Source: Moniliella sp. 'wahieum' (lineage: Eukaryota). From it: DNA of 64,000 nucleotides. This document shows positions 3,831-64,000 of this stretch, one piece after another. The notes below the pieces were generated by a model that saw nothing but the letters and a program-made list of their open reading frames with translations, was not told where the DNA came from and made no database searches. The position numbers were made by a program, and so were the translations under genes. The DNA lies in contig RSEE01000003.1 in NCBI GenBank assembly GCA_003971905.1, positions 682,001 to 746,000 on the forward strand. The letters run 5' to 3'. Position 1 is the stretch's first letter, and each line of letters opens with the position of its first letter.

Positions 3831-4678
3831 TGGCCTAGCGGCCTCGTGGCCTCGTGGTTCATGGTCTAGTGCCCGATAGTCTAATGTCCCTGACGCACCT
3901 CATTCCGACTCCTTGGCTCCTGTTCGTGCCTGGGTCGGACGGAAACGAAACAAATGATTTAGTTGAGCATGTTGGGATCGGTCCCTCCGCGATGGTTGGG
4001 GGGATACCCTCCCCGGCGATTACTTTGGTGCAGGGGCATTACGTTGCTTTGTGCAATTGGGCCTGGGGACAGTAGTCGAGGTAAGGCCAAGATAGTGGAA
4101 CGGTAGGGGGTAGGCAATGGGCCGTACATGTTTTACGTATGAACTGAACCTACTAGACTGAACGGACTGAACGGAGTAGTCTATGAGAAAAGGGTGCCAT
4201 ACTGAGGAAGATGAACTCGGTCGGGGGAGCACGGGATGCAAACGCATGGACCTTGCATGTATCAGACGTCAGTGCGTCAGATCAGCGCTCTTCGCAAAGC
4301 AACTCATACAAAACGCAAGGCCAACGGAAACATGAACGTGACGAATTATTGGAGTAACTAGTAGTAAAGCGTAAATCCTCCTGCCGTGAGACTACTTAGA
4401 ACTATAGATGCTCACTTAAAGCGAGTTCAAGCAGTTCAAGTGAACGCTTCACCTGAACTGGTAACTACAACTCTTGAAACCATGACATGCATGACAGCTA
4501 TAATGCCAGGGACATGGTGTACACCTTATAAGCCGAAGCAGCCAATACACGGAGTGGCAATGAAGCTTCATTCATAGCGGGGGAATGTCGAAAAGCACAG
4601 AAAAGTTGTGCAAAAGGGGAATTTAACGTGACAAGCACATATTGATAGGCAACAATAATATGAAACAAAGAGACTCGA

Positions 4679-9500: not shown

Positions 9501-12322
9501 CTGCCCCTGCCTTGATCGCTCCCCACTTCTTGGTCACGGTCACCGGCCACTATAGTCACTACTGTGTAAATGGCCGATCAGAGCAATAAGTTCATCGTTT
9601 AATCCATCGTTCGCAGCGTCCCCTCTCGCGAAAAAATGACCTCCGCACTTACGGGAACGAGAACCACATTGTCCACCATAGCTGCCCCCCTCTGGTTTGC
9701 TGAGGTGTGGAGGGTCTCCCTAATAGGGGTATTACCATTACCAGCATCACCTGCATCACCTCCCTGAAGGTGTCTCTGCAATGGCCTAAGCCCTAAGTCA
9801 AAGCCCTAAGGCCTTTACGACCTAATATTAAATCTTACCAAGCTCTAAGCTTCTAATGTAAGCTCTATAAGGCCAAATCCCCCAACGTAAACTCTCTTCA
9901 TGTCGGAGCAGTTGAACTCCCCTTTAGTCCGTTCAACGTTTAACCTTTCGATACACTCAACTCCCACAGTGCAGAGCTAGCTGTGCGCATTGCGCTGTAA
10001 GACTGGTGATCGGTAACGGTAAACGGTAAACACTATGGAACGATTAGCAGCACGGGGTGAAGAAGAGAGAGCGGCTATTCTTCTCTATGCTACCTACTAT
10101 ACGTCGGGCCGTTTGGTGTACTTGCTGTTGGTGTATGTGACGTGGTAGAGTGTGATGCGGCCTGCGGGTTATGGTGTGGGGTTTCGATAATGTAGGGGGT
10201 ATCTCCAGAACGCACGTAACAGTGAGAGCATCGAGCACTTGGAGTAAGAGAGGTAAGACTCGTACTTCTCGGAGTAGTACTCTGCGCGGTATAGTAAAAA
10301 CAGGAAGGTCCTCATCAGCCGCCTGTGTACTCAGTTAAGTGCTCCAGTATCAGTCCTGCAGGTATTGGGCCAACTGTTGGCCATCTCACACAGGTGCGAG
10401 GCGCTTGGAGGCAAAGGTGTCGTCATACGCGTCGTGTTGACATGGTGAACAACACATGTGTGCACATACAGAAGCTGCATTGAATATTGAGATCTGAGAG
10501 CACTGACGATTGGTGACTTCAAGAGTACTGAGTATATACTGCGGGTGACATGGTGACATGTGACATGTGACGCTTTCGCGTGCGTGACGCGTGACGCGTC
10601 GCGGCCCTTGTGGGATCTGATGAATCTGATGCACAACAGGATCTGTTGGCCGCGATTGGTACGTTGTACGTCGTACGTCGTACGTCGTACGTTGAACGTT
10701 GGACGTTGGAGGCTGTTTGTGGCGACTATAACTCAGCGCTCGTACTCATTGTGGGCAACAGACGTGGCTGAAGCGGCGGGGCATGGGGACGTGGGACGGG
10801 CGGGGTGGGGGACGGCGTGTTTGTAGTTGGGGTGCTGGAGTTCCTACCTTCCTGGGAGGATGGGTGTGTGACATATGTGACAGGGTATACACTGTGGGGC
10901 GTGCGGCATGGGACGGGTGGCCGGTGACGCATGTCACCATGTCCCCGACTATCGATTATCGATCGATTTATCGATTAACTCGATTAACGTTTAACGTTAT
11001 TTAACCTCAATCTTACCGTTGCATGTACATTGAACTTTGAACCGGGTAACTAGTAAGTTGCCCCGCCAACGCGTCAGCGCGCACTACAGTAACTGAGCCG
11101 AGCAGGCCTGTACTACATACTGTGCCTGACAGGTATACCGGAGCTTTAGCGTCAACGCTGTCAGCCGTTACGAGACCCGATGATGTCTCTTCTTCTCCTT
11201 GTCTCTCAGAGACTCCAGCGCGAACGAGAGTCACAATTGAGTACTGAGTACTGACACCTCATTGATGTGGGGACGCGCTTGTTTTAAAAAGTCCGTTCAA
11301 CGAGTTCACATTCAATCGATCTATGACCTTAATGACCCGAACGGGTATCGGCCCTATGTATCCTTGGTTGCGAGAGCGGCCCTTTCTTGCCTGGGTATTT
11401 ATTTTCTGTTCTTCCCCACGCTTCGTCTCCGTGGGAAGGAGGAGCGTCGCTGGTCCGCCACTAGGTGGTCCATTCGGTCCTTTGTTCACCGGCGCCCAGG
11501 AACGGTCTAGTTTTTGTGGCGACTTTACTGCCCTCCACGCAGTTCCTGATCTATAGTAATCTCCCCGTTCCCACATCTGGGATGTCTTTCACAAAAGACG
11601 TGTCACACGTCACTACGGCCCCAAAGCCCCTGTGCCTACGCAGCCTTTTGCTATCCCGGCCACCACCTGGCTATTGCTGATGTGCCCCAGAGGCCTCATG
11701 GCGATGCAGTGAAGCAGAGGGCGGTCGTGGCATCTATAGTGCGCTTGTGATGGGTATAATACCGTGGAAGGCTGCAGCCGAGAGCCACGGACGATTGGAA
11801 GAAGTTTTTTCCTGTTCCTTTACAGGAGTTGGCTGGTGCATTCATATCTCTTATACAGAAGAGATCAAGGCTGGGACAAGGAAACGCTGTGCCTAGAAAA
11901 CAATTGCCAACCAGGAGTACGAAGAATCCGCACGATATCCAGCTAATAATGCAGTGATGGCGCCTATAGCAGGCCTATACGTTGTAGAGGAGGCTGACAT
12001 GGTACACTGTGGAAGGATAGAGACCTGAGAGGGATCTCATCTAACAACCATACAACTTCAAAGAAGAACCAGAAAATGTGTGTATAATATACGCGTAATA
12101 TAAAACCTTTGAACCCAGATGTATGTCGGATGCCAAGGGATAACGGGCTTGAAGAAACCGCCGATTGTGGGGAGGATACAACAACGAGAAGTGGAAGGAA
12201 CAAGCTGTACGAGATAGACATGAGATGATAACAGAAGCAGAAAACAGTAAACAGTAAACATGAAACAAAACGAATCGAAAAGCTGTATAACAGAGGTCCA
12301 ATGAGGTGGACCACAAACGCTT

Positions 12323-22315: not shown

Positions 22316-22324
<9 letters not shown>

Positions 22325-22346
<22 letters not shown>

Positions 22347-22370
22347 TTTTGTTTTTTTTTTTTTTTTTTT
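22325..22370 (+). repeat. Poly(T) tract interrupted by a single G
   Basis: Directly visible homopolymer run downstream of the tricalbin stop codon. Confidence 0.95.
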
Positions 22371-22526: not shown

Positions 22527-22611
22527 CGCCCCACGTGGGACTCGAACCCACAACCGTGAGATGGACCTCTGTTGTAAGAGTCTCAAATTCTACCGATTGA
22601 AATAGCGAGGC
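22527..22611 (-). tRNA. tRNA-Lys(CTT) with 12-nt intron
   Basis: The minus strand folds as GCCTCGC-TA-TTTC-AATCGGTA-GAAT-T-TGAGA-CT CTT A[caacagaggtcc]A-TCTCA-CGGTT-GTGGG-TTCGAGT-CCCAC-GTGGGGC-G, followed by a T-run Pol III terminator. Confidence 0.92.
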
Positions 22612-23388
22612 GGAGTGGTACGATGGAGGGAGGTGAAATCTACCGAGGGATTAATGCGAGGCAAAGGCAAAGGCAAAGGCGGGGTTTATAGTTGCTTTAT
22701 GTCGACCCTCATTTTGTTGGTTTGAAGGTAAGGTCCAGATCATGTGATCTGAGCGGCTGAGGCTCGGCCTGGCTGGGCACGGCGGTGGGTGGTTAGTGGT
22801 TAGTTCTGACGTCGATCTGATCTCCACGTTCCACCAGCTTAGGCTTACTTGCGGCTGGGCGCAGGGAAACTTCAATGTTCAATGTCAATGTCAAATGTCC
22901 AACTGCATCGGCCGGCTACCTCAGGCCCCGCGCCCGAGTCGGCCGGGGACAGGGCTGGTGCGTGGGGCCCAGCTCGCATCTTCGGCATTTCCCAGGTACC
23001 CCGTGCAGTGCCTGTGTGCGCAAACAACGCACCACACTCCCCGCGTGCCAGCCAGAGCGCTTGCCCGCTGCCCGGCACATCGGCCGGCATGCAGCAAGAC
23101 AGCGGGGGGCGGCGGCAGCGCTGGGGCCGAGGCCCAGCCTGCGCTCCTCCCGCACCGCCGGGTGGGTGCGCGCACGCGGCAGCCGCCCACATGCCCTCCT
23201 GCCCCCAGCTCAGCAGCACCCCGACAAGCGGCAGACGGGCAGTGTGACGTAGCGTCCCCGTTTCCTCAGCCCGTAGACGTTAGACGGTGACCAACCCTCC
23301 GTCCGCACCTGTCCCGGCCACCCAAAGCCCACCCGCCCGTCCAGCATCCAGCCTACACCACCACCACCCTACCCCCTTTCTCTTCGCC

Positions 23389-25061
23389 ATGCTGGCTGCC
23401 CTGATCGCTGCTGCCTCGCTGAGCGCTTCGGTCGCCGTGTCCGCCGCGCCCCTGCCCGACGCTGCTCCCCGCCGCATCTCTCGCTTCCCGTCTACAAGTT
23501 CGACCGCCACACGCCGAGCGCCATGCTAAGCGTGGTCAGGCCAGCGTCGATGCCACCCTTGCCCACTTCCGCGGCCAGCAGGCCTACCTCCGCAACAAGT
23601 ACAACCCAACAACGCCACTTCCCATGCCAAGCGCCAGAGCACCGCCCTCACCGACGTTGGCAACCGACTCGTACTACTATGCCCCTGTCGGCATTGGCAC
23701 CCCGGCCCAGACATTGGCCGTGGTGCTGGATACGGGTTCGAGTATGTCGCTCGCTCCGTTCGGATGTGCATACACTGACACTTCTCAGGCGACCTTTGGA
23801 TTGCCTCGAACGAGTGCACCACCCAGGCGTGCAGCAGCCTGGCCAAGTTCTCCACGTCGGCCTCCAGTACCTTCCAGTCGTCCAACACGCCCTTCTCGGT
23901 GACGTTGGCTCGGGCGCGACCAAGGGCCACCTTGCCTCTGACACGGTCAGCCTTGCCGACTACTCGGTGCAGCATCTGACGTTTGCTCTGGCTACCGACA
24001 TGGCCCAGGGTACGCTGGATGCGCCTGCGTCGGGGCTGATGGGTCTTGGTCTGCAGCAACTGAGCTCGGCGGGCGTAACGCCATTCTGGGAGGTCCTCGC
24101 TAAACAAAACGTGCTCTCCTCGCCTGTGTTTAGCCTCCAGTTGGCTCGTAACCCTCGTGCTACCTCGGCCACGTCCCAGATCCCCGGCGGTGTGTTTACG
24201 CTTGGCGAGCTCGACTCGAGCCAGTACTCGGGCAACGTTAACTGGGTCAATCTCGATCCGGCCATGGAACAGATTGGTTACTGGGCCATTCCTCTGTCTG
24301 CCATGCAGCTCAACGGTGGTAACACGGTCACGTTTAATGGTCAGAGCGCGATTGTGGACTCGGGCACATCGTTGATTGGTGCCCCTTCGGCTGTCGTGTC
24401 GCAGTTGTACGCTGCTATCCCCAACGCCCAGCAGTTCGGTAGCCCAGACCAGGGCATGTTCGTCTTCCCCTGTCGGGAAACCGTCAAACTTTCCTTTACC
24501 TTTGGAGGCGTGCAGTACATGGTCGACCCTAACGACTTTAATGCTGGCGCGGTGGACAACCAGGGATCCATGTGCTTGGGCGCCGTGTTCGCTATGGACA
24601 CGGGACCTTCGATGCCCAACTTTATTTGCGGTGACTCGTTGATGAAGTCGTACTTTACTGCGTTCAAGTTGGGTGAGAACGGACAGTCGTCTCAAGTCGG
24701 CTTTGCTCGGCTTAAGAATGGCGATTCGGCTCAAACGATTGCTACCACAGCGACGTACGTGACCGCTACGGGCGCGGCGGGCGCAACGGGCTTCCCACAG
24801 CCCACTGCTTCATCGTCTTTCCAGGTACCGGGACTTACCTCGGTAGCCAACGCTGGCGCAACGGGCACACAGGTCTACTGGGGTTCGGGCCTTTCTTCCC
24901 CCATCGGGTCGGGGTCTCAGGGCCCAGCCTCCCCGACCCAAGCGTCCCACGGATCAGGTAGCTCAAGCAAGTCCCCAGCGTCTACCACGCTCGTTTCTAA
25001 CGCCGTCTTGATCACGTCCACCCTCCTGGCCACCTTGGCGGGCATGGCGTGCGTGCTGTAA
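23389..25061 (+). CDS. Secreted pepsin-family (A1) aspartic protease, likely GPI-anchored
   Basis: Signal peptide 'MLAALIAAASLSASVAVSAAPL'. 'YYAPVGIGTPAQ..VVLDTGS|SDLWI' across intron 23742-23788, and second motif 'AIVDSGTS'. Ser/Thr-rich stalk and hydrophobic C-terminus. Confidence 0.92.
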
Positions 25062-25534: not shown

Positions 25535-25665
25535 AATGTCCAGATGCTTAGATGCCTAGATGTCCAGATGTCCAGTTGTCCAGTTGTCCAGATGTCCAGA
25601 TGTCCAGATGTCCAGATGTCCAGATGTCCAGATGCCCAGATGCCCAGATGCCTAGATGCCCAGAT
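25535..25665 (+). repeat. 8-bp minisatellite (GATGTCCA)n, about 16 units with variants
   Basis: Units counted directly: GATGTCCA, GTTGTCCA, GATGCCCA, GATGCCTA, GATGCTTA. Confidence 0.95.
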
Positions 25666-26188: not shown

Positions 26189-26252
26189 CACTCCATATGC
26201 CGACGTGGGCGGCGCACAGCACTCCTACTATGCCGACATGGGCGGCGCACAG
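26189..26252 (+). repeat. Two-copy ~32-bp tandem duplication
   Basis: CACTCC..TATGCCGACRTGGGCGGCGCACAG occurs twice in tandem. Confidence 0.85.
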
Positions 26253-27177
26253 TGAGATCTGAGACTGCGGCGGCCCCGCAAGCCACATGGGCAATTCTCA
26301 GATCTCAGATCTCACGCGTCACGTTTCACGTTGTGCCAGTGTCTGCTGCATCGAGTATCGAGCATCGAGTATCTCGCTGTGTAATATCTCCCCGGTTGCA
26401 TACCGCGTTCGTATCTCGGGTGCGACCGGGCAGAAGAAGCAACACAGGCGGCGGATGCGGCGATAAAAAATTTAAAAGGCGATAGAGAGGCTGTGCTGGT
26501 CGTAGAAGATGCAAAAGATGGCTGGCTGAGCCCTGAGCAGCTGAGCGGTGGCGCTGGGGGGGCTGAGCCGGCACGGGGCGATGGCGTGCACATTACATGT
26601 GCATGTCGATGGTGGCGTTCCGATGGATTGATTATCGATCACCGAAGTTATCGTTATCGAGTATCGGTTATCGACTTTGCGGTTTCGTGGCTGGCGTGGG
26701 TGGCGAGGCTGAGCGGAGCAGCCGGTTGCTAGTTGCGGTGCAAGTGCAACGTGCACCGTGCGTGCAGGACCCATGCGGTGCCCATTTCAAATCGTCCCTG
26801 CACCACCGCCGTTCAAATTGACGCCTCCAGGTTCTCGGGTCCAGGTCAAGCCTATTATAGCTTCAAGCCTAGCTTCAAGCTTCCTACCCTAGCAGAGCTT
26901 CACTCTTCGAGCTTTGAGCTCTTCACGTTCACCACTCCTTGCTGTCCCCACGCCACTCGGTACGCGGCACTCACTCAGTACTCGGTTCAGTAGTGAGACT
27001 CACTAGCACTGGTCAACTCACGCCGTCACACATGAGTACCGTGAGTACTGGAGAAGACAAGGTGAGGCCCAGAGGCAGCCTGGCTGTCTAGGCTGGGTTA
27101 CTAGTTCGGTGAACCAACGGTTGACACGTGGGCCGAGCGTTGGCCCAACGCAGGGTGGCGGTGGGGTAGCCAAGGGT

Positions 27178-27846: not shown

Positions 27847-29419
27847 ATGGTCCTCGCCAAGTCCAACCCCCGCACCCGCGGTGCCAGCAACATCGACTTC
27901 CAGAGCGCCACCACTGGCATTGCCAGCAAGGCCATGCGCAATGAGCTCAACCAGCTCATTGCCGGCGTCGAAGACCCCGCCGCCGCCGCCGGGCCTTTGA
28001 TGCCGAGATGAGCGGCTTCTTCACCCTCTTCAACCGCTACCTCGCCGAGAAGGCCAAGGGCGAGAAGCTGTACGTACCCTTCTCTCGCTTCCTCCTCCCC
28101 ACTCCCCCCCCAGCTGACCCCCCGCCCCCCTCAGCGACTGGAGCAAGGTCAAGTCCCCCTCGGCCGACCAGATCGTGCCCTACTCCAAGCTGGCCACGCC
28201 TACGGACATGCGCGAGTCCCTGTCGAAACTTGCTGTGCTCAAGCTCAACGGCGGCTTGGGCACGACGATGGGGTGTGTCGGTCCGAAGAGCGTGATTGAG
28301 GTGCGGGATGGCATGACTTTCCTCGACCTGTCTGTCCGGCAGATTGAGCACCTCAACACGCAGTACGATGTCAACGTGCCCTTTATCCTGATGAACTCGT
28401 TCAACACTGACGACGACACGGCCCGCGTCATTCAAAAGTACGAGAACCACAATGTTCAGATCCTCACTTTTAACCAGAGCCGGTACCCTCGCGTCAACAA
28501 GGAGAGTCTGCTTCCCTGCCCGCGCTCAGCTACGGCAGACAAGAACCTTTGGTACCCACCCGGCCATGGCGACTTGTTTGACGCACTGAACAACTCGGGC
28601 TTGCTCGACCGTCTCCTTGCCGCAGGCAAGACGCACGTGTTTGTCTCCAACGTGGACAACCTCGGTGCTGTGGTCGACTTTAAGATTTTCCAGCACATGC
28701 TCGACACGGGCGCCGAGTACATTTCCGAGGTTACCGACAAGACCAAAGCCGATATCAAGGGTGGTACCCTGATTGACTATGAGGGCACCATTCGTCTCCT
28801 CGAAGTGGCCCAGGTCCCATCGGAACACGTCGACGAGTTTAAGAGCGTGTCCAAGTTCTCCATTTTCAACACGAACAATCTCTGGCTCGACTTGCAGGCG
28901 GTCAAGCGCGTGCTCGACGAGGAAGAACTCGACTTGGAAATCATTGTTAACAACAAAGCTTTGCCTTCGGGCGAAGCTGTGATCCAGCTGGAAACCGCCG
29001 TCGGTGCAGCTATCAAGCATTTCCGCGGCGCGATCGGTGTTAATGTCCCCCGTTCCCGCTTCTTGCCTGTCAAGAGCACGTCGGACCTGTTGCTGATCAC
29101 ATCGGACTTGTACACACTCCAACACGGTCGTCTTATCGCCAACCCGCGGCGACAGTTTGGTGCAGACGTGCCCCCGGTCGTCAAGTTGGGCGATACGTTC
29201 AAGAAAGTCTCGGAGTTCCAAAAACGGTTCAAGTCCATCCCGGAAATGGTCGAGCTTGACCATCTCACCGTCTCGGGCGACGTCACGTTTGGCCGTAACA
29301 CCTCTCTCCGTGGCACGGTCATCATTGTGGCTACTACCGGCAACTCGATTGCCATCCCGGACGGCGCCGTGCTGGAAAATAAACTCATCTCGGGTAACTT
29401 GAGCATCATTGACCATTAA
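27847..29419 (+). CDS. UGP1: UTP-glucose-1-phosphate uridylyltransferase
   Basis: '[21 protein letters not shown]', 'LMNSFNT', 'WYPPGHGD', 'SNVDNLGA', '[10 protein letters not shown]', C-terminus 'GNLSIIDH'. Intron 28070-28134; one indel near 27990. Confidence 0.97.
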
Positions 29420-30943
29420 GTCGTTTGATGTTTGATCTTACATCTTGGATCTTGGACCTTGGATCTTGGACCAGACCAGGCGGCGGCTTTGCTCTGTGTT
29501 TTTCTGTCGTTTCCCGACCTTGTTTATTGCTGGCTTGTATCCATGTCGCTTGTGCGCTGCGCCCCCGATGCATCTTGTTAGACCATGATTAAGGAGTCCA
29601 GATATATTATAGGTCGTTTCCTCTAGCTCGCGTCTTGTCCTGAGGCTCAGGCCTGCCCCCCTGACCGGCTGGACCCTCCTGATGCATGATGCTTCAACTT
29701 CACCTTATGATACGGCTGATTGCACACAGAGAAAGGGGCGCAACACCCAAGGTTTGAAATTTGAGGTTCGAAGTTCGAGGTGACCGGTGACCGGTGAACG
29801 TTCAAGTTGAACGTTGAACATCATCCATGCCCATCGTGCGCACGTACGTGTTGGCGTACACGAACCACGCTCTACTCTACTACTTACTTTTCCTCTATTA
29901 TATTCCTCTAAAGCCCCCTCCCTCGTGTCACGCTCATCTCAATTCCTTGTTCGTCGGCCCGCACCAGCTTGCGCCTAGCTGGTGCACTGTTGACTCTTAC
30001 TTCATTACTTCACCAAGCGGGTTAGGCAGCCCACCCACCCCTCACCCCTCACGCAGAGCCCAACACGTTCCTCCCACTGCCACTGTTCGCTTGCAGCAAC
30101 AGCCCCAACCCAGTCGCTTGTCTTGCCGTACTGGAAATTGTGCATGCGCATGTAGGCCGTAGGCTTGGTGCGGTCGCCTATGCCCACTGCACGATAGCGG
30201 TGCAAGTGAGCTCGTAGCTGTGTGGTCCGTACGGGAAACGGGCGGGGGGGGGGGGTAATACGTATCTGTTCCCCCCTCGGCCATCAGTCACGTCGCTATT
30301 TGATGCGGGTTGATCTGATCTCGCTCTGCTCCATGGCCAAGACAGTCCGTTCCTGCTGGGGGTCTATTTCGTGTTGATATAGGTGGTTTTGTAGGAAAGA
30401 GCTTTACCATAGAATACCTGCAGGCATGCCCTGACTAGAATAAGGATGAGTACCGTACGCCCACGCATATAGGCCAGGTTGGGGCCAACAGGGACACGCC
30501 CTTGTACAGGACGAGCTGTCGGAGCTTACTCCTCCCTCTTGAGCCGTGGCAATGTGGGTCTCCTTGAGAGCTTGAGGCCTCATTGAGACCCCTTTGCGCA
30601 TGGCCACCGCAGACAATGCTGCTCCTTCTGGCGATGCACAGGCGAGGGGGTCATCAATCACTGGGTCACGTAACACCTGGCGGTAATTTAACTCGCCTTC
30701 GACCCATGACGCCTGACGTCGCAGCGCCGCTTCTTTAACTTTCAAGGGCGGAATGCGCCCCCCCTCCCGCTGGGGCAGTTCCGCCGGGCTCCGCAGCGAC
30801 ACGAGGGGTTGCCTCGTCGCTTCGCCAGGCTGCCATCGCAACCACAGAGACCCTCCAGCTGCGCCTCCTCCGCCTCTCCGCCGCCGCCTCCTCCTGCTTG
30901 GCCAGCCGCGCTCAGCCGATCGGGCTGGTTTGAGGTGCTGTCC

Positions 30944-47939: not shown

Positions 47940-49290
47940 GCCTGACCGGTGACCGTCCATGGCCACCGATCATCGATCATCGACGATGATTTCGATCGAA
48001 CACGAGCGCACGAGCTGCGCCATCGTCTTAGCTCTAGCTCTTACTGGATGCAGAGGTTCAGGAGCAAGTGCAACACAAGCAACACCCAGCCCAGTCTTGG
48101 ATTCCCTGCCGATCGCGCTTTTGTCCCACTCTCGCCCCCCACCGCCACCGGCCACCGGCCACCGCCCCACCCCAGCCCCACGTCTCCGAGTCCCCGAGTC
48201 CTCCAGTCCTCCGAAAGCTGCCAGTCCAGTCGAGTCTACGTAGCGCGTATAGACCCCGTCGCAGACGATCGATGATCGATGATCGATCATGGCAACTGAC
48301 ACGCGACACGCGACATGTGACATGCAACGTGCAAGAAGGGGCACGTGACGTGTGACATGTGACCGATGATCGATGATCGATCATGTGATCGGGGGCCATG
48401 CACCATGTGCTTGCACCGCACCCTGCTTTAAAATGGCCGCGGCCGCTCCAACCTTCCAGGCCGCTCCTGCTCCTCCGCTCACGCTCTCGAGCAGCGCTCA
48501 GCCGGAGGGCGCACGCTCAGGCGCTCAGGCTGCTCTCAGATCAGGCTGTGCCTTCAGTCCAGCTGGAGACTGCTGGCGACGGCCGCACGCCTGTGGCTGT
48601 GACATTGTGAGCGCGCTGAGCCCAAGCTCAGCTCTTTCTCAACTCTGAGAAGATCTGAGATCTGAAATCTGAGATCTGAGATAATACAGGCGGCACGGGG
48701 CCAGTGGTGGTTAGGCCTTAGGGCTCGTCGCAGGCTGTCGCCACCGCCACGACAGTTCAATTCACCCACATGTGCGGGGTTGGTCTCGATGGGCGGAGGA
48801 AGGTCGGAGGAGAGTGTAGTGCGGTGCGATCCAAGCGGAGGAAGCTTCACTTGAAGCTTGAAGGTGACACAAGGCGATGCAAAAGCCGATACAAAAGGCA
48901 AGATGCACTGCCCGCGCTCACCGCACTGCCCGCTCGCAGCGCTCTGAGTACTATGGATATAAGAATCCTGGGTACCTAGCTAACTGGTAAAACTGCGCCC
49001 TGGTGCTCCATCGGGGTGCAGGAGGGTGCAGGCGGATGCAGGCGGCAGGACACACGATGCGGTGAGATCTGAGATGTAGGACATTTGACGTGTGACATGT
49101 GACAGGTGACGTGTGACAGGTGGCGTATGTGACGTGTGACATGTGACGTGTGAGATCTGAGATACGATGTGTCGCTGTCGTGCAATGGATGGGATCCAAT
49201 ATCTGTGCACCATGAGACCATCGATCATGCACCATGAGATTCATGAGATTCATGACGCTGAGTACTACTGAGTTACTGAGTACTGATTGG
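47940..49290. repeat. Dense cluster of 7-bp-period TGA-N4 quasi-palindromic arrays
   Basis: Examples: 48346-48383 TGA cgtg TGA catg TGA ccga TGA tcga TGA tcga TCA; ~48650-48683 (TGAGATC)n; 49086-49167. Confidence 0.85.
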
Positions 49291-55714: not shown

Positions 55715-55812
55715 GGCAACGTGCCCGAGTGGTTAAGGGGATTGATTCGAACTCCTGTTTAATGACTATCAATTAGGCTTTGCCTGCACAGGTTCGAGTC
55801 CTGTCGTTGTCG
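55715..55812 (+). tRNA. tRNA-Ser(CGA) with 16-nt intron
   Basis: GGCAACG-TG-CCC-GAGTGGTTAA-GGG-G-ATTGA-TT CGA A[55752-55767]A-TCAAT, long variable arm AGGCTTTGCCT, then ACAGG-TTCGAGT-CCTGT-CGTTGTC-G, followed by a T-run. Confidence 0.95.
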
Positions 55813-56926: not shown

Positions 56927-58466
56927 ATGGCTACGCAACGACGCTGGCTCTGACGCCAGTCGGCGCAGGTGTCTACGCCGCCATCCGCGCCGCCAAAATC
57001 CCCCCGTCATCTCGGACGCACTTTTTGCGGTTGTTGTCCATCTACGCCATCGGTGTACCGAGCATCTTGCTCATACTCCCTTCACTATCGCGCGCAATCT
57101 CTTTGCCTTCACACGCCGTAAGCGCGCTTGGTCCTTCGCCAACGGTGTGACCTTCACCGTTGTTCGTCTGTATGTCCATTTCGTCACTGCCATCGGGTTT
57201 GCGCCGGCCCCAAACTCTGCCACCGGCTGGCTGCAAGGCACAACCTCGTTTCAGTTGGTTGGCAAAGATTGTACAAACATTGACTTTACGAAGTCATGGC
57301 AAGAGCATCTGGGCCAACCGTCAGAACGCGCCTCACCTCCCCCACCTTCATGGCTGCCGCCTTGATGAGGTCTGGGTTTCTCCTCTCCTGCCGATTGGCT
57401 GCGTGGACTGCTAGCGATTCGAGATCCCACACAGGCATTGGAGACGCAACAGTCCGAGTCGCCTTGTACCGCGGCCCTGCAATGTTGGCTCCAGAATTTG
57501 CAAAGCGCAGTACAAAGTGCTACTGGTACCTTTCCAAGCATCGTTCCATTCCCCCTTTGGCAGAGGACGAAAACAAGATTCGTACTACTCCTGTCGTACT
57601 ATATTGTCACGGTGGCGCAGGCATCAACTTTGGCGCCGGCGATACCTTTATGGGGGACGTGTTAGCTTCCAATTTAACCACCATTGCAGATGTCGACGTG
57701 TTTACCGTCGACTATGACTTGGCCCCTTATGCGAAGTATCCCACCATCGCTCAACTTTTCGCTGCGTGGCTATATCTAGTCATTGATATCGGCTACAACC
57801 CGAACCAAATCTTCTTGGAGGCGATTCTTTTGGTTCATTTTCTGTATTGCTTCTCAATCGCTACCTTCGTGACGTGTGGCCCCTTCTCAAGTCACCTACC
57901 TCTGAATCTTTTGCTGCGGCCGACCCATCACGTACAACCGAATGGATTCAAGACCGCGTAGCCAAGTTTACCGCGGCGCTCAGCAGCTTGCCACAAGGAG
58001 AGCCCCTTCCTACCCCTGGGCTTATATTGTTGAGCCCTTGGCTGCACCCCGATGAGAATGATGCAGAGTTCCCGCTAAAACGCATTGCGTTGCGTAATTG
58101 GGATCTGATTCCTGCATCGTTTACCCGTCAAGGTGTGATACAACTCGGACTTGCACGTTCTCGCTTGGCCTCTTTGGGTATCTCGGCTACTTCGCCTTGG
58201 GTTGCGCCCTACTATTTACCCGCAGAGGAGCTAGCTGTCTTACCCCCAATTTGGATGGCAATGGTGGCAGCGAGAGCCTTCTCGAAGAAGGGACTCAGTT
58301 TGCAGATCGCGCTCGTGCTGCGGGTTGCCCCGTTGAACACCATGTTACCGAGCCAGGTATGGTGCACGATTTTTACTGCATCCCAACTGCACTGTCCCAG
58401 ACCAAGATCCACTTCACTCTTCTCAAAGCTTGGATCCAGAACCGTTCGAAAGAAGCTACAGTATAA
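56927..58466 (+). CDS. HSL-family alpha/beta hydrolase (esterase/lipase)
   Basis: 'VVLYCHGGAG', 'VDYDLAP', nucleophile GDSFG (after an indel at ~57820), 'LILLSPW', 'GGSESLLEE', 'GMVHDF'. Start uncertain; several indels. Confidence 0.85.
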
Positions 58467-58639
58467 ATACTCCAGTATAATCTGTTGAAGATGGCTTCAT
58501 GTGAATAATGCCATTACTATATGACCCCGTATAAGAAAAAAAAACGTCATAAGGTCATATATTGATACCGAGAAAGTATTCGCCGCTGTCAGAAAATCAC
58601 CTTAACCACAAGCCATGGGGCGGTGCTGGAAGAACGAGT

Positions 58640-61188
58640 CCAGCCAAGCTCAGCGTGCGCTCATATTGTACCCCTTGCTTGGATTGTGTCTAATGACTGC
58701 GGCTACTTTGTCTGAAATAGTTGATGAACAAATCCACGTACTCCCCGTTGCGTCAGAACGTAGTGTATCCCTTCCGATCTATGCAGCCTGTGGCTCGAGC
58801 CCCTCGCGTATATGGCCAACGTGAGATCCGCGTGCGTTTGCTTTTATCCTACCACACAATTTGAATTGGACTTTGATTGGGTGCAAGTGAGCTCTCAGTT
58901 AAGCACATTAAGCCTCCAGATATCCAGTGAGCGTTAGTTTCCTGATCTCTGCTTCTCGTTTTCTTTGCTGCGAGGCTCTCTCCTAGTGCCTGTCTCGTTC
59001 CTGTGGCCGGGGGCGGAGAGCCTCTGCTCTCTATTTTTAAGCCTTTTCTTGTTGGATGTGACTGTTTCTGTTTCTCCAGGCTTAAAGCGGACAACTGTCC
59101 CTCCTGTGGATCTGTGGTCCTTTTTGAGGTCGACTGATCTCTCCAGTCGCTAGCCTATTCGAGAGGTTTCAATGTCGGGATCAGATCCACACTTATTGGT
59201 CACCGTTTTTCTCACCAAGGTGACTGGCCACCTGACTTGTTCTAGACCCTCTGTTTTCCCCGTTTGACTAGGCTCCCAGTTCTTCCTGCGTGTGACTCAG
59301 CTCGCATGATCTCTTCTTCTGCGAGGCATATATATACCTCGCTCTCGTTCCACTCGATGAATATGATCCTCATACTGTTATTCAAGCTTCACCCTGCCTC
59401 ACGCACAAATGTGTGTTATCGACCGTTGCTATAGTTATCATCGATGAAACGAACGTCATATTAGTCCGCACTACTGTAAAACCTGTCACGGCAGGCGCCG
59501 CCAGAGTGGGCCCCTGCCTAGGGGAGGGCAGGGGTTATAGGGGTATACAATCCCCGAGAGGTCTAAAGGTGCGACTCACGGTATTTATACATGCTTGGGC
59601 TGATTGGTGTGTCCGAGATGAGCCAGGGCCAAGGAGTGGCCTTTCGGAGCATATAGCAGAGGCGTCTGCAGGTGTGACAAGTCTGCGAATGCACCGGCTT
59701 AGGCGCAGTATATAACGTGTTTAATATTAATCTGTTGGTGGCCAAGGGACAGGAAGTGGCAGCAGCTAGAGGACAAATATACTTCCAGACCTGGAGTTAC
59801 TAGGAGTTCAGACGGAGGCGGCGTGGTGGACCCACGTGGCTGGTGGAGCTGATTTCGACATAGCGCGAGGAGAGCACACGCGACTTGGCTGGGTGAGAAG
59901 CTGAGAGACGGGGGATACGGGAGCTGTGGAGGGCGAGGGCGAAGAGTAGCTGGGAGTAAAGTCTCTCTCAAAGAAGAAGCTCTGAAGATTGTGGGACATG
60001 TGAGCCTACTCACGATACCCGATGCTATTCTTGTGGTCTCGGTCTCTATGATATCTATACGTCAAGCAAAATGTGTCTCTTTAGTATAGAATAGAAGACA
60101 TGAAGTACCAGGGACGCACTCAAGCCGTTTCCCCTTGGTTTTGACGACGCGAGGACACTACGGCACCAAGACAGAGCGGGCAAGATGTTTGCCGCAGTGC
60201 CAGGATTTGGCTACGGAGTTCAATGGAAATGGTTCCTCGCTCGGACCATGCCTGCCACGATCATCCGTGTCCACACGCGCTACCTAGGGTACGGGACCGG
60301 ATGGCGAGATCCAGAGGGTCCTGATATCCTGGCGATCTCCTTGGTGCTTCCAAGTACTACGCATGGCACGACGCTTCGGAGCGACACGCTTGCGACTGGG
60401 TTTGGAAGCCTGATCGTTCTCGTACAGTTGCCAAGCACGCCGCACTGCCCTGATATGACGAAAGATTGCCTTCTGCAAGTCCTCAAAGGTGGAGAAGCGA
60501 TGAGACTTGTTATAAAAGACGTAGGCAACATAGAAGTCGGTCGGTGTGAGCAAGATGTTTTTTCGCCGCCATGGTCCTTGCTGTATTCGGTAGTAATGAT
60601 ATCAGCCACAATAGAGTCTTCGTCTGCCACCGCGGAGCCAGAGAGCGGCCAGTTCAGCGGTCCGCTCGATTCCAGCTTCGAATGGTAGGAATGACTTCCA
60701 GGATGAACTTGGCAGCGACGTCCTCGGCAACGTCCGAAAGGACGGCGTTCAGTTCAGCCCAAAAACTACGTGTGCGGTTGATGCGAAAACCGGCCACTGC
60801 GCTGTCTTGCCAGGGCTATCCCGACTTGGGAGTTGGGGTCAAACTCGCCACGACGAACATACGCTTCCACAATGTCGCGAGGCGAGTAAACCGGATGCGC
60901 AGAATGCGCAAAGGCAGAAGATAAGGGGACATAACCTGTTAGAGTGCGACTTGGGAGCACTCGCGATCCTATGGATCAGCTGCAAGCAGCCTTCAGACAA
61001 GGCGTGAAGGCAAATTGGTGAGCCACAAGTCTTCAAGCAACGTCTGAAGGGAAGGAGAAAGGAGAGAGAGAAGGGAGATGGAGCGAGCAGGGCGTGCGCG
61101 GCCTGCGGCGGAACGGTTCCGTCGGCTAGGCGAGCGTCACCGATCCATTGAGAGCCGCGCTGGAGAACTCTAGCAGCACCCTCTAACA
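58640..61188 (-). mobile_element. Decayed Ty1/copia LTR retrotransposon (5' LTR, PBS, gag/protease/integrase relics)
   Basis: LTR 60937-61188 with TGTTAGAG...CTCTAACA ends; PBS-like GGTTATGTCCCC (60925-36). Then, in copia order: knuckle relic 'KSWHCGKH..CP' (~60150-60210), protease 'AHMSHNLQSF' (~59980-60005), 'AHLGHTN' (59603-23), 'YDVRFIDD' (~59437-60), 'VERERG', 'SNG..E'. A further 'LRSD..GEYV' lies at ~58735-58763. Confidence 0.85.
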
Positions 61189-61248
61189 CAGGGAGAGCGA
61201 GTATAGGAGGATCAGATTCGTCAGATACGCGCCCATGGGCACGTCAAT

Positions 61249-61374
61249 GACGTTTCTGACGTTCAAGGTGGTGACGTCGGCGACATAACTGACCTGCAGG
61301 GGGATGACATCGAGGACATATCTGACGTTCAGGGTGGTGACATCGACGACGTCACTGACCTGCAGCGCGCTGAC
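61249..61374 (+). repeat. 33-bp tandem repeat (about 4 units, ABAB) reading DVSDVQGGDVG/DITDLQGDDIE
   Basis: Units start at 61249, 61282, 61315 and 61348. GAC (Asp) codons are conserved at fixed positions. Confidence 0.8.
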
Positions 61375-61637
61375 AGAATTGCCTCACCCACGGCAAATTA
61401 CTCTGACATTTTAAAGGTATCTCTTAAACATAAATGATGTCTTTTGGTCATCCGCTGTGTAACTCTCGCGTGATCAACGGTTCGGCCCGGTTAGACGTAG
61501 CATTTCCCCTGTCCCGCCTTAACCTCTGTCAATGATATGGACGCGGTCTAGGATTCAGCTCAAATTACTTCTCATGCAGTCTGGATTGATCGCCGAACAT
61601 CCTGGTATTATTGCTGATAATCGATAACCCAGGTCCC

Positions 61638-61827
61638 TGTCACGGGGTGGGCCACACCAGGGCACGACCAGGGTTTGGGTGTACGATTCCTTAGGAGACA
61701 GGAGGTCACTGATTGAATAAAGGGAAGATCATATGCTATACATAGCTCCATCCGTGGTGCCCCCTTGCAACACTTCTACTCGATGGAACCCTATGTTAAA
61801 ATCACTGGGTCCTCTCATTGTGTGACA
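61638..61827. mobile_element. Candidate LTR relic (third family)
   Basis: TGTCAC...GTGACA inverted termini, 190 bp, internal AATAAA. No TSD or PBS seen. Confidence 0.3.
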
Positions 61828-64000
61828 CTGATCTAATAACGCACAGTGCTTAGCGCGTAACCTGCGTGCGTAGCCGGAATGACCAAGCACACATCACCAC
61901 GCTTCAACCCTCTCAATTTACACTAAAATATGCCATGCAGATGACTGGGAGTTGGGGGGTTTGGTTAGTATACGTTAGCATGCTGCTTTTGCCCAGGAAT
62001 CACGGCGACTTCAAAGGCAACTTGGCTTAGACTGCGATACTCACTTAGGGTTCTAGCTGTTTTACCAACTGCTCACACAACGGGAGGAGAGACTTGGCCG
62101 TTTCCGATGCAAAGAGGAAAAGGTTCCTTGCCCATCTAGACTGCGACCGTGAAACGTGCATGTTGCCCAGCAGCATGCTGTTCAGAGAGCTTAGCCGATT
62201 GGACACATTGTCTGCAAAACCATCAGCCCAGCCCACTAGCTGGAGACGGACCAGAGCTCGGCCACAGGCCTTGGCTCGAAGGGGATTGACGCTCTTCCCA
62301 ATTTCCTCACCGTCCCTTGTTCCTGTGTCGTACCAGGATGTGGAACGACAAGAATTGCCGCTGCGTGAAGAGCAAGAAAACTTACTAATGGTATAGTCGT
62401 CGTAGAGGCGCAACTTGGTTTGTCCAACTGAGTAAGAATGAAGGCGCGTGTCCTGTTGCCGGTGAACTTCAGCAGGTTGGACGCCAAGGGTATGACAGGG
62501 TTATGTGCGAGAGCACCTTTAAGATTATTGCCCGAAGATGTCGTCTACAGTTCTGGCAGGGGATACTGTGTTGTGTTATGATCACAAGGCCCATCATTCG
62601 TTTGTCTGACCATAACAGCATCTGACAACAAATTAGAATATTGGTGCGATGGGGGTATGTTTTCGGATGTGATTCCTGAGGAATGCTTCATGGAATGGTT
62701 AGCAAACATATTGATACAAAACTTACTGCTTAAATGCAGTGGTTGAAGATGGTGGAGTGATTATGTCGAAATGCTTTGCTCGAAGAGCAACCAAATACAT
62801 ATCTATCGTAGGGTCCTTAAATCCTCCAACGTTTGCGGCTTTCCTTGTCGAACTTTTTAGCTACAGACAAGAGATGTTGACCAACAAATATGCCGATTAC
62901 TCCCATATGAGAACATTCTGCCCCAAAATCGGGTGATAGGTATCTGATCCAACCATTTTTGACGGTACAATAGAAATACCAATTGTCCAAGGTTCCAGAA
63001 ACACACTTCCTAGGTGCAGACACGCACTGGGCGAACGTCCTCTCCAGCGGTGTAGACGTGACGAATAACATACCGTAGATGAGAAAAATCGTTCCTATTG
63101 TATTCCCTGAGGCCAACGAAATGATGAGGATTCTTCTTCCAGGTTATATCCGTCAGTTGTCCGACTCAACAGTTAAACGCGAGTAAATCATAGCCAATCG
63201 GTTTGTTTCAGCTGTTCCATCAGATTATTGTCCTAATATCCCCTTTGGTTCAATCACGGTATTATGGTCCGGTCGTAGGTCAGGATCGATGCCTGAGGGA
63301 ACCATGTCTGGGGACGATAACGGTTCATGACCGTGGATGAGGAAGGATATCAAATCCTTTTCAATCCTGCAAATATGATCGCAAAACCAAAGATGTGACA
63401 ACTTACATTAACTCGAATCCTGGTGCCTACAATCCGGAATGAACGCGAAAATTCATTCGGCGATCCCAGTGCTCCAAGCACCCAAGAGATTAGTGTTACT
63501 TTGTTAACCGCAATTACCGGTTTTAGCGGGCCTCTACCTGATGAAGCACAATGTTTTGCCGGTTTTATGTAGTGCGGTTTCCTGTGGGACTTGATAGTAC
63601 CAAAAATAACAGAGGATATACTTATTGCATTCTCGAGCAATCACTGCTCTACCCTAGGCCTCATCAGGTCTAGTGTGTCATGGAATGTGTTACCGTGGTG
63701 CATTCCAAAGTGGCCTTTTTAAATTCACGACACAATATGACGCCTATTGTTGCTGGGATAAGTGGTACTGATTTAAGTTGCATACCGGACACCATCAATT
63801 AATATCGTCGATTGAAAAACAAGCAATCATCAAACGCATATTAGTAATACGTTCAGACGAACACAATGCTTGACTCAGAAAATGGGAAAAGTGGGCACAT
63901 GTCCGTCCAAGCTGAAAGTATTCCATTCAAGTAATGATCACTAGTCTAAGGTGCAATGTATTTTTGTTGTGTGGATGAATTGCGTGCTATACTGGTGACA

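Follow-up and report, generated by a model that had tools for sequence, protein, structure and literature searches.

Mixed 7-base arrays with flank-templated palindromic cores, probably formed as stacked transposon excision scars

How can a short tandem array keep its register while the sequence between the register marks changes from one palindrome to another? The question is raised by positions 26298-26332 of the 64-kb stretch of DNA analysed here (the window), where direct reading gives TCA gatc TCA gatc TCA cgcg TCA cgtt TCA cgtt, with caattc before it and gtgcc after it. The array lies within the 3-kb spacer between an aspartyl protease ORF and a UDP-glucose pyrophosphorylase (UGPase) ORF. 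The window has a GC content of 57%, and its Pfam-supported genes encode a class I tRNA synthetase, a sugar transporter, a tricalbin, the aspartyl protease, UGPase, Mon2, and ribosomal protein S17. The best named relatives of the UGPase are those of Tilletiaria anomala (82%) and of Tilletia and Sporisorium (81%), which places the source organism among the Ustilaginomycotina. The features around the array are the following; the terms scar, type, and flank rule are explained below.

23277..25061, + strand: aspartyl protease ORF (Pfam PF00026, E 4.4e-44), upstream neighbour of the array
26253..26262: isolated single scar, TGA gatc TGA then ga, right type, 36 bases upstream of the array
26298 array, left block: TCA gatc TCA gatc; the left flank is tc, mirrored by gatc
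26298 array, right block: TCA cgcg, which mirrors cg, the base pair following the site
26298 array, tail: TCA cgtt TCA cgtt, a plain 7-base duplicate without an exact fit to the flank rule
28118..29419, + strand: UGPase ORF (Pfam PF01704, E 7e-187), downstream neighbour of the array

Other repeats are found nearby. A 33-base segment in tandem duplicate (90% match) occupies 26189-26252 and abuts the isolated scar at 26253. About 630 bases upstream of the 26298 array, a long period-8 array of AGATGYCC-like units (25536-25665, about 15 copies, also scored at periods 16 and 24) follows no TNA rule and has the look of an ordinary minisatellite.

The arrangement at 26298 is one instance of a pattern that recurs throughout the window. 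The sequence TNA, a palindromic N4, and the same TNA again, with the middle base N identical in both copies, occurs 77 times, whereas about 2.2 occurrences were expected from 50 third-order Markov simulations in which each triplet W was scored in the form W-N4-W. By triplet, the observed and expected counts were 31 and 1.0 for TGA, 26 and 0.82 for TCA, 12 and 0.22 for TTA, and 8 and 0.16 for TAA. No other short period is as common as period 7, which has 64 perfect runs of two or more copies compared with 21 at period 8 and 19 at period 9, and the unit of 28 of these 64 runs is a 6-base palindrome plus one base. The window holds 80 recognisable events; isolated single scars number 39. When runs of identical units were collapsed, 66 arrays were obtained, 11 of them with two identical units, and fourteen different palindromic cores are in use. 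Among the 72 chains with at least one palindromic core, 25 contain at least three in-register TNA triplets, and two distinct palindromic cores are present in 5 of these 25 (10481, 26298, 29781, 48346, and 49130). Matches to the 12-base pattern form a decay series, with 83 perfect matches, 104 with one violation (8.6 expected), and 306 with two (106 expected), which suggests scars of many ages. The TNA target rule is a preference, not a law, because scars that mirror their flanks at a 7-base step are also borne by GCA/TGC, TAG/CTA, TGG/CCA, TTG, and GGG. Such sites include 7456, 7551, 10228, 23274, 26746, 27471, 47730, and 48396; they mostly retain the T or the A, as if the halves of a symmetric site counted separately.

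The core is not arbitrary: the neighbouring dinucleotide sets the N4. In 51 of the 66 arrays, the outer half of the core is the inverted complement of the dinucleotide just outside the array (on the right in 23, on the left in 18, and on both sides in 10, with neither in 15). When the dinucleotide was taken two bases farther out as a control, only 4 and 4 of the 66 matched. Within the 25 chains, where the cores were compared with their present neighbours, 42 of 72 cores fitted the rule exactly, 15 were one substitution off, 11 two, and 4 three. The exceptions thus amount to 15 of 66 arrays and 30 of 72 chain cores. They include the cgtt-cgtt pair at 26298, which is two substitutions from any allowed form (x2); in parsing it, one change must be a transition and a second change is left over. 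In the five chains with two palindromes, the left-hand palindromes are all classed as left type; the right-hand ones are right type in three, RLD then L in 48346, and the non-fitting acgt (x2) in 29781. The cores at 26298 are classed RLD, L, R, x2, and GATC stands beside CGCG in one register because the left block mirrors the left flank and the right block mirrors the right flank. A phase-blind comparison of mismatch by position gave 0.317 for the triplet and 0.42 for N4, a biased measure on which we do not rely, since the phase was picked by TNA count.

The first-pass annotation had quoted three similar runs, at 29755, 48346, and 49130, and all four strings, that at 26298 included, match the sequence as written. 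The run at 29755-29804 was quoted with the right letters, but it is not one chain: its register is broken once, at CGA gg TGA, where the spacing is 5 bases (the '..' of the first reading), and this leaves two chains, 29755-29778 and 29781-29804. The loci read as follows, together with a cleaner mixed array beyond the quoted four.

29755..29778, first chain of the second locus: tt TGA aatt, mirroring the left flank tt, then ggtt/agtt units, with TGA becoming CGA
29781..29817, second part of the second locus: gg TGA ccgg TGA ccgg, mirroring the left flank gg, then TGA acgt ... TGA acgt TGA ac, mirroring the right flank ac
48346..48383, third locus, left: cg TGA cgtg TGA catg, one or two transitions from cgcg, the mirror of the left flank cg
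48346..48383, third locus, right: TGA ccga TGA tcga TGA tcga TCA; a few bases later TGA tc, restarting the tc of the tcga block
49130..49160, fourth locus: tg TGA cgtg TGA catg TGA cgtg, then TGA gatc TGA ga
10481..10497, cleaner mixed array: at TGA atat TGA gatc TGA ga, classed L, R

At 10481, the left core atat mirrors at and the right core gatc mirrors ga. Similarly, at 49130 catg mirrors the left flank tg, gatc mirrors the right flank ga, and cgtg is one transition off (classed x1, L, x1, R), while the cores at 48346 are classed x1, L, x1, RLD, L, and in its right block tcga mirrors tc. The ggtt/agtt units at 29755 would fit decayed direct 7-base duplicates that were built from the right dinucleotide gg and the left dinucleotide tt. 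Inside 29781..29817 sits an irregular TCA agt piece, and the acgt core there, which can be read as a mirror of ac, is the one that the chain census scores as non-fitting. Short inverted arrangements in which TCA faces TGA, off the 7-base register, occur at 29795-29817 (acgt TCA agt TGA acgt) and 48375-48390 (tcga TCA tg TGA tc); longer joints derived from hairpins are one possible origin for them.

A second class of products, 9 bases in length, reveals how long the direct duplication is: in it, xyTNAab is followed by two inverted bases (of ab or of xy) and then by xyTNAab again. This class was found at 10 loci (0.00 expected):

9-base class: loci 2226, 4483, 9747, 10975, 16282, 33941, 34020, 46790, 49694, and 53979
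4481..4496, example of the 9-base class (locus 4483): CATGACA, inverted bases tg, CATGACA again

Because the 9-base class copies the whole of xyTNAab, the direct duplication is 7 bp, symmetric about and centred on the N of TNA. Direct repeats of exact nnTNAnn 7-mers number 23 at spacer 0, 6 at spacer 1, and 19 at spacer 2 (each expected at most 0.1), and only 0-4 at each spacer length from 3 to 12. The spacer holds the inverted flank base in 5 of the 6 spacer-1 repeats and the inverted flank dinucleotide in 10 of the 19 spacer-2 repeats; the other 9 of the 19 are not inverted copies. The latter include perfect 9-base tandem duplicates (at 4157, 7275, 49233, and others) with TNA at a fixed offset and two extra bases that are not inverted, which may represent another product class or a different process. 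Two other schemes were considered for the elementary event. A 5-bp duplication with one-sided P nucleotides matches the 7-base scars alone (5+2) and is excluded by the 9-base class, which duplicates all 7 bases, and a 3-bp TNA duplication with remnants of transposon ends cannot yield cores that depend on the flank. On a (k,m) grid of duplication and inversion lengths, the elementary event is not separable, as the interiors of arrays satisfy several classes together. The spectrum of unambiguous products, with each 7-base product expected about 0.1 times, is given below; the census sees solely joints that keep both TNA copies, and heterogeneity is under-counted accordingly.

Right type (7-base): 21
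Left type (7-base): 17
Plain 7-bp duplicate: 3
9-base class: 7 unambiguous and 4 ambiguous
Inverted bases taken from both flanks: 0
7-base scar with a single inverted base: 0 unambiguous

We consider it probable, on balance, that a cut-and-paste transposon, one that duplicates 7 bp of its target and whose flank hairpins are opened 2 nt off the tip, left the mixed 7-base arrays behind as excision footprints stacked on one another. From the products we infer the transposon, the hairpins, the position of their opening, and the joining step. In this scheme, a cut-and-paste DNA transposon would insert with duplication of the 7-bp target xyTNAab centred on N, and upon its excision both flanking ends would be sealed as perfect hairpins. 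A host nuclease would then open the hairpins 2 nt from the tip, producing 4-nt overhangs, ab-b'a' at the left end and y'x'-xy at the right end. These overhangs would be self-complementary, and the duplex would end at TNA. The ends would be joined with one overhang of the two surviving and filling the 4-base gap, either through trimming of one overhang or through ligation one strand at a time, with replication or mismatch repair afterwards. The predicted outcomes are TNA-ab b'a'-TNA (right type) and TNA-y'x' xy-TNA (left type), each with a net gain of 7 bases and an unchanged triplet. Joining by one overhang predicts the two 7-base products in approximately equal numbers, as is observed. Opening of one hairpin at the tip would add 9 bases (the 7-bp copy, 2 inverted bases, and the 7-bp copy), and opening of both at the tip would leave the plain 7-bp duplication.

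Arrays would grow by repeated hits on the original or on a copied TNA. A left-type scar would be a palindrome of the left flank and a right-type scar a palindrome of the right flank, so that cores change within an unbroken register, and older units would later be blurred by point mutation. The triplet would appear to be kept since every event re-copies TNA as the centre of the 7-bp duplication. Of the earlier proposal that the spaced triplet, and not the repeat unit, is maintained or generated, the second half agrees with this scheme, in which each event generates the triplet anew, and the first finds no sign of upkeep by selection. In 48-50 kb, about 86 (ancestral) TNA sites bear 15 recognisable scars, and at this density second hits on one TNA site are expected without any special expansion mechanism; slippage may additionally contribute to the arrays. 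Pfam searches of 53 + 29 ORFs detected no transposase in the 64-kb window, and a TIR+TSD scan for elements with matching target duplications of 3, 5, 7, 8, and 9 bp returned only chance-like matches. Absence of the element from 64 kb is weak evidence, because low-copy cut-and-paste elements seldom fall in such a sample.

The most familiar explanation of short head-to-tail arrays is slippage, by which a hairpin-prone palindromic 7-mer would slip, mutate, and have its variants re-expanded as an ordinary microsatellite. The arrays share with micro- and minisatellites born by slippage their short head-to-tail units, varying copy number, and decay by point mutation. Some adjacent units are one transition apart (cgtg/catg, ccga/tcga), the window has other short-period arrays without the TNA rule, and the plain cgtt-cgtt duplicate at 26298 fits slippage equally well. 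Against this, the units here arise singly at a specific triplet, carry the inverted flank, and show identity of length 5+7k. The 39 isolated single units argue against slippage, as there is nothing there to slip. Around the 77 sites, lag-7 identity peaks at 5-6 and 12-13 bases and spans 3-6 bases in 40 sites, which argues against duplication of whole units, since that would give at least 7. Neither the mirroring of the flank nor the 9-base class belongs to slippage. To assess the switches between palindromes, slippage with point mutation was simulated as the first-pass annotation had suggested, from pure palindromic arrays with point mutation and unit gain or loss under 40 parameter sets. Two distinct palindromic cores were present in 0.3-5.7% of the simulated chains, compared with 5 of 25 observed (binomial tail 0.012 at 5.7% and 0.0001-0.003 at 2-4%). 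This evidence carries moderate weight because the simulation is simple, and the flank rule is the stronger argument. The single-strand folding of the four arrays was not notable (z -0.72, -2.31, -1.13, and +1.30). The marks of a slippage repeat, namely whole-unit copies, a unit independent of its flank, and rarity of palindrome-to-palindrome switches, are therefore not those of these arrays, and we regard slippage as a very improbable origin. The first-pass statement that the arrays are not plain microsatellites is supported by the isolated units, the sub-unit identity, the flank-templated core, and the simulation. Of the switches that it quoted, cgtg/catg, ccga/tcga, and TGA/CGA are single transitions and possibly ordinary decay.

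A host process could also act without a mobile element: a nuclease, perhaps a domesticated transposase, might cut TNA in open chromatin with a 7-nt stagger, leaving breaks that are sealed as hairpins and then closed by end joining. It predicts the same product spectrum, agrees with a window in which no transposon was found, and would suit products that are unusually uniform. However, strand transfer by an inserted element normally leaves a direct 7-bp duplication, whereas a break alone requires additional fill-in at both ends before hairpins form; no candidate gene was seen in the window, and the missing element counts for little in a 64-kb sample. We consider this route unlikely. A polymerase that switches template at TNA during replication or repair, so that the growing strand takes up a copy of two bases from the strand opposite before copying the site a second time, could in principle make direct-plus-inverted copies, also with no mobile element. 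The return jump would take place without microhomology, as the two bases before xy mismatch the inverted pair in the 9-base examples, and both the symmetric T-N-A preference and the sharp choice of 0 or 2 inverted bases are left unexplained, which makes template switching quite unlikely. Selected arrays of palindromic sites for dimeric transcription factors at a 7-base spacing would agree with the intergenic position, and some units may resemble known half-site palindromes, e.g. TGAC-GT and CACGTG. Such selection is hard to reconcile with fourteen different palindromic cores, a core that follows the local flank, scars that also lie between convergent ORFs (2226, 4483) and directly downstream of the UGPase ORF, and the decay of many scars; we hold it to be highly improbable.

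Excision footprints are a known kind of scar. To this kind the arrays of the window would add a symmetric 7-bp duplication, a product spectrum with a proposed joining scheme that gives a fixed period, stacking by density, and an account of the core switch. Like flank-hairpin footprints, the scars have a target duplication of fixed length and inverted (P) nucleotides at the joint. Transib elements duplicate 5 bp of their target, which separates Transib- and RAG-like systems from the scars described here, where the 9-base class duplicates 7. To our knowledge, no described superfamily combines a 7-bp TNA-centred duplication with perfect flank hairpins.

According to the available portions of one source, flank hairpins are formed by hAT, Transib, MULE, and RAG, the target duplication is 8 bp for hAT and 8-10 bp for MULE, and the flank hairpin of the MULE Muta1 is perfect, with 43+43 nt (PMC5499845). 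In the available portions of a second, Ac/Ds in Candida albicans left 28 kinds of footprint among 128 events, the joints centre on the complement of the element-adjacent base, and Pso2 is the yeast protein implicated in repair of the Ac/Ds hairpins (PMC5873905). The scars resemble those of Ac/Ds, other hAT elements, and Muta1, as far as these portions describe them, in that a target duplication flanks the joint, short inverted (P) nucleotides derive from the flank end, and hairpins on flanking DNA followed by end joining serve as the explanation (PMC5873905, PMC5499845). Compared with hAT as outlined there, the duplication here is 7 bp and not 8, the palindrome is even-centred, and N is the same in both copies. 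Compared with MULE, the even-centred inverted bases fit a perfect hairpin, but 7 bp falls outside the 8-10 bp given in that source. The joints here are nearly uniform, with one product pair dominant, in contrast to those reported for Ac/Ds, a contrast possibly overstated by a census that is blind to joints losing a TNA copy. Unlike hAT and MULE footprints, the scars are dense enough to stack as arrays. For V(D)J coding joints, the available text on Artemis states that 17 of 17 tested coding-end hairpins were opened primarily at +2, and the features shared with the scheme proposed here are a perfect border hairpin opened mainly 2 nt from the tip, a resulting 4-nt self-complementary overhang, and two inverted bases (PMC2175297). 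V(D)J joints have neither a target duplication nor a TNA site, and their diversity comes from deletion and from the addition of nucleotides. A literature search, limited in reach, found no account, whether from smut-related fungi or from other organisms, of palindromic 7-base scars at TNA.

A wider claim would be that the lineage has its own hairpin-forming transposase system, possibly domesticated or still active, which continues to write 7-base scars, all nearly identical, into regulatory DNA, generating 6-10-bp palindromes and new arrays. Its target class, defined by 7 bp, nnTNAnn, perfect hairpins, and uniform joints, would lie outside the described superfamilies. We regard this claim as doubtful. 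If it held, the transposase system would be a built-in source of palindromes that might serve as binding sites for dimers, and of fresh short tandem arrays.

As a control for lineage, 79 metagenome contigs were retrieved via the UGPase. The closest, a 21-kb piece with 58.5% GC and a UGPase 78% identical to that of the window, contained 0 TNA-palindrome-TNA in 822 TNA sites and one 9-base case, a comparison of limited power given its compactness (long-ORF share 85% vs 64% in the window). The other 78 loci, pooled (213,689 bases, 14,771 TNA sites), contained 24 TNA-palindrome-TNA and 5 flank-fitting cases, where approximately 14 and 2 were expected by chance. These counts are slightly above chance and far below those of the window, with 77 TNA-palindrome-TNA and 65 flank-fitting in 2,592 TNA sites. 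A UGPase 95% identical to that of the window (P0001) is present on a 5.1-kb contig of a public run assembly; a close relative has thus already been sequenced. If the excision reading is correct, a large share of the intergenic short repeats would be a readable record of thousands of transposon visits, and would provide a direct measure of how transposons moved and chose their targets, and of how hairpins were repaired, in a basidiomycete that has received little study. Excision scars would then also seed tandem arrays and palindromic motifs near genes. For annotation, the flank rule should be checked before such arrays are called slippage microsatellites or conserved regulatory motifs.

The scars are depleted from coding DNA. 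None of the 39 isolated scars lies inside a Pfam-supported ORF, although these ORFs make up about 27% of the window (0.73^39, about 5e-6), as expected for insertions of +7 or +9 bases. Scars are located upstream of genes, between the convergent tRNA-synthetase (+) and sugar-transporter (-) ORFs (2226, 4483), and just downstream of the UGPase ORF; the latter two settings indicate that they are not confined to promoters. The region 58001-64000 has a GC content of 45-53% and the densest TNA sites (110-132 per 2 kb), yet contains one recognisable scar. No Pfam domain was found in the ORFs beyond 58 kb. This region seems to have been spared by scarring or to be young. Rfam and tRNA scans identified two tRNA genes only, neither of them at the arrays:

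22527-22611, - strand: tRNA gene
55715-55812, + strand: tRNA gene

ARAGORN missed both, perhaps owing to introns. A T-rich tract of about 55 bases (22316-22370, 88% T) adjoins the tRNA gene at 22527-22611.
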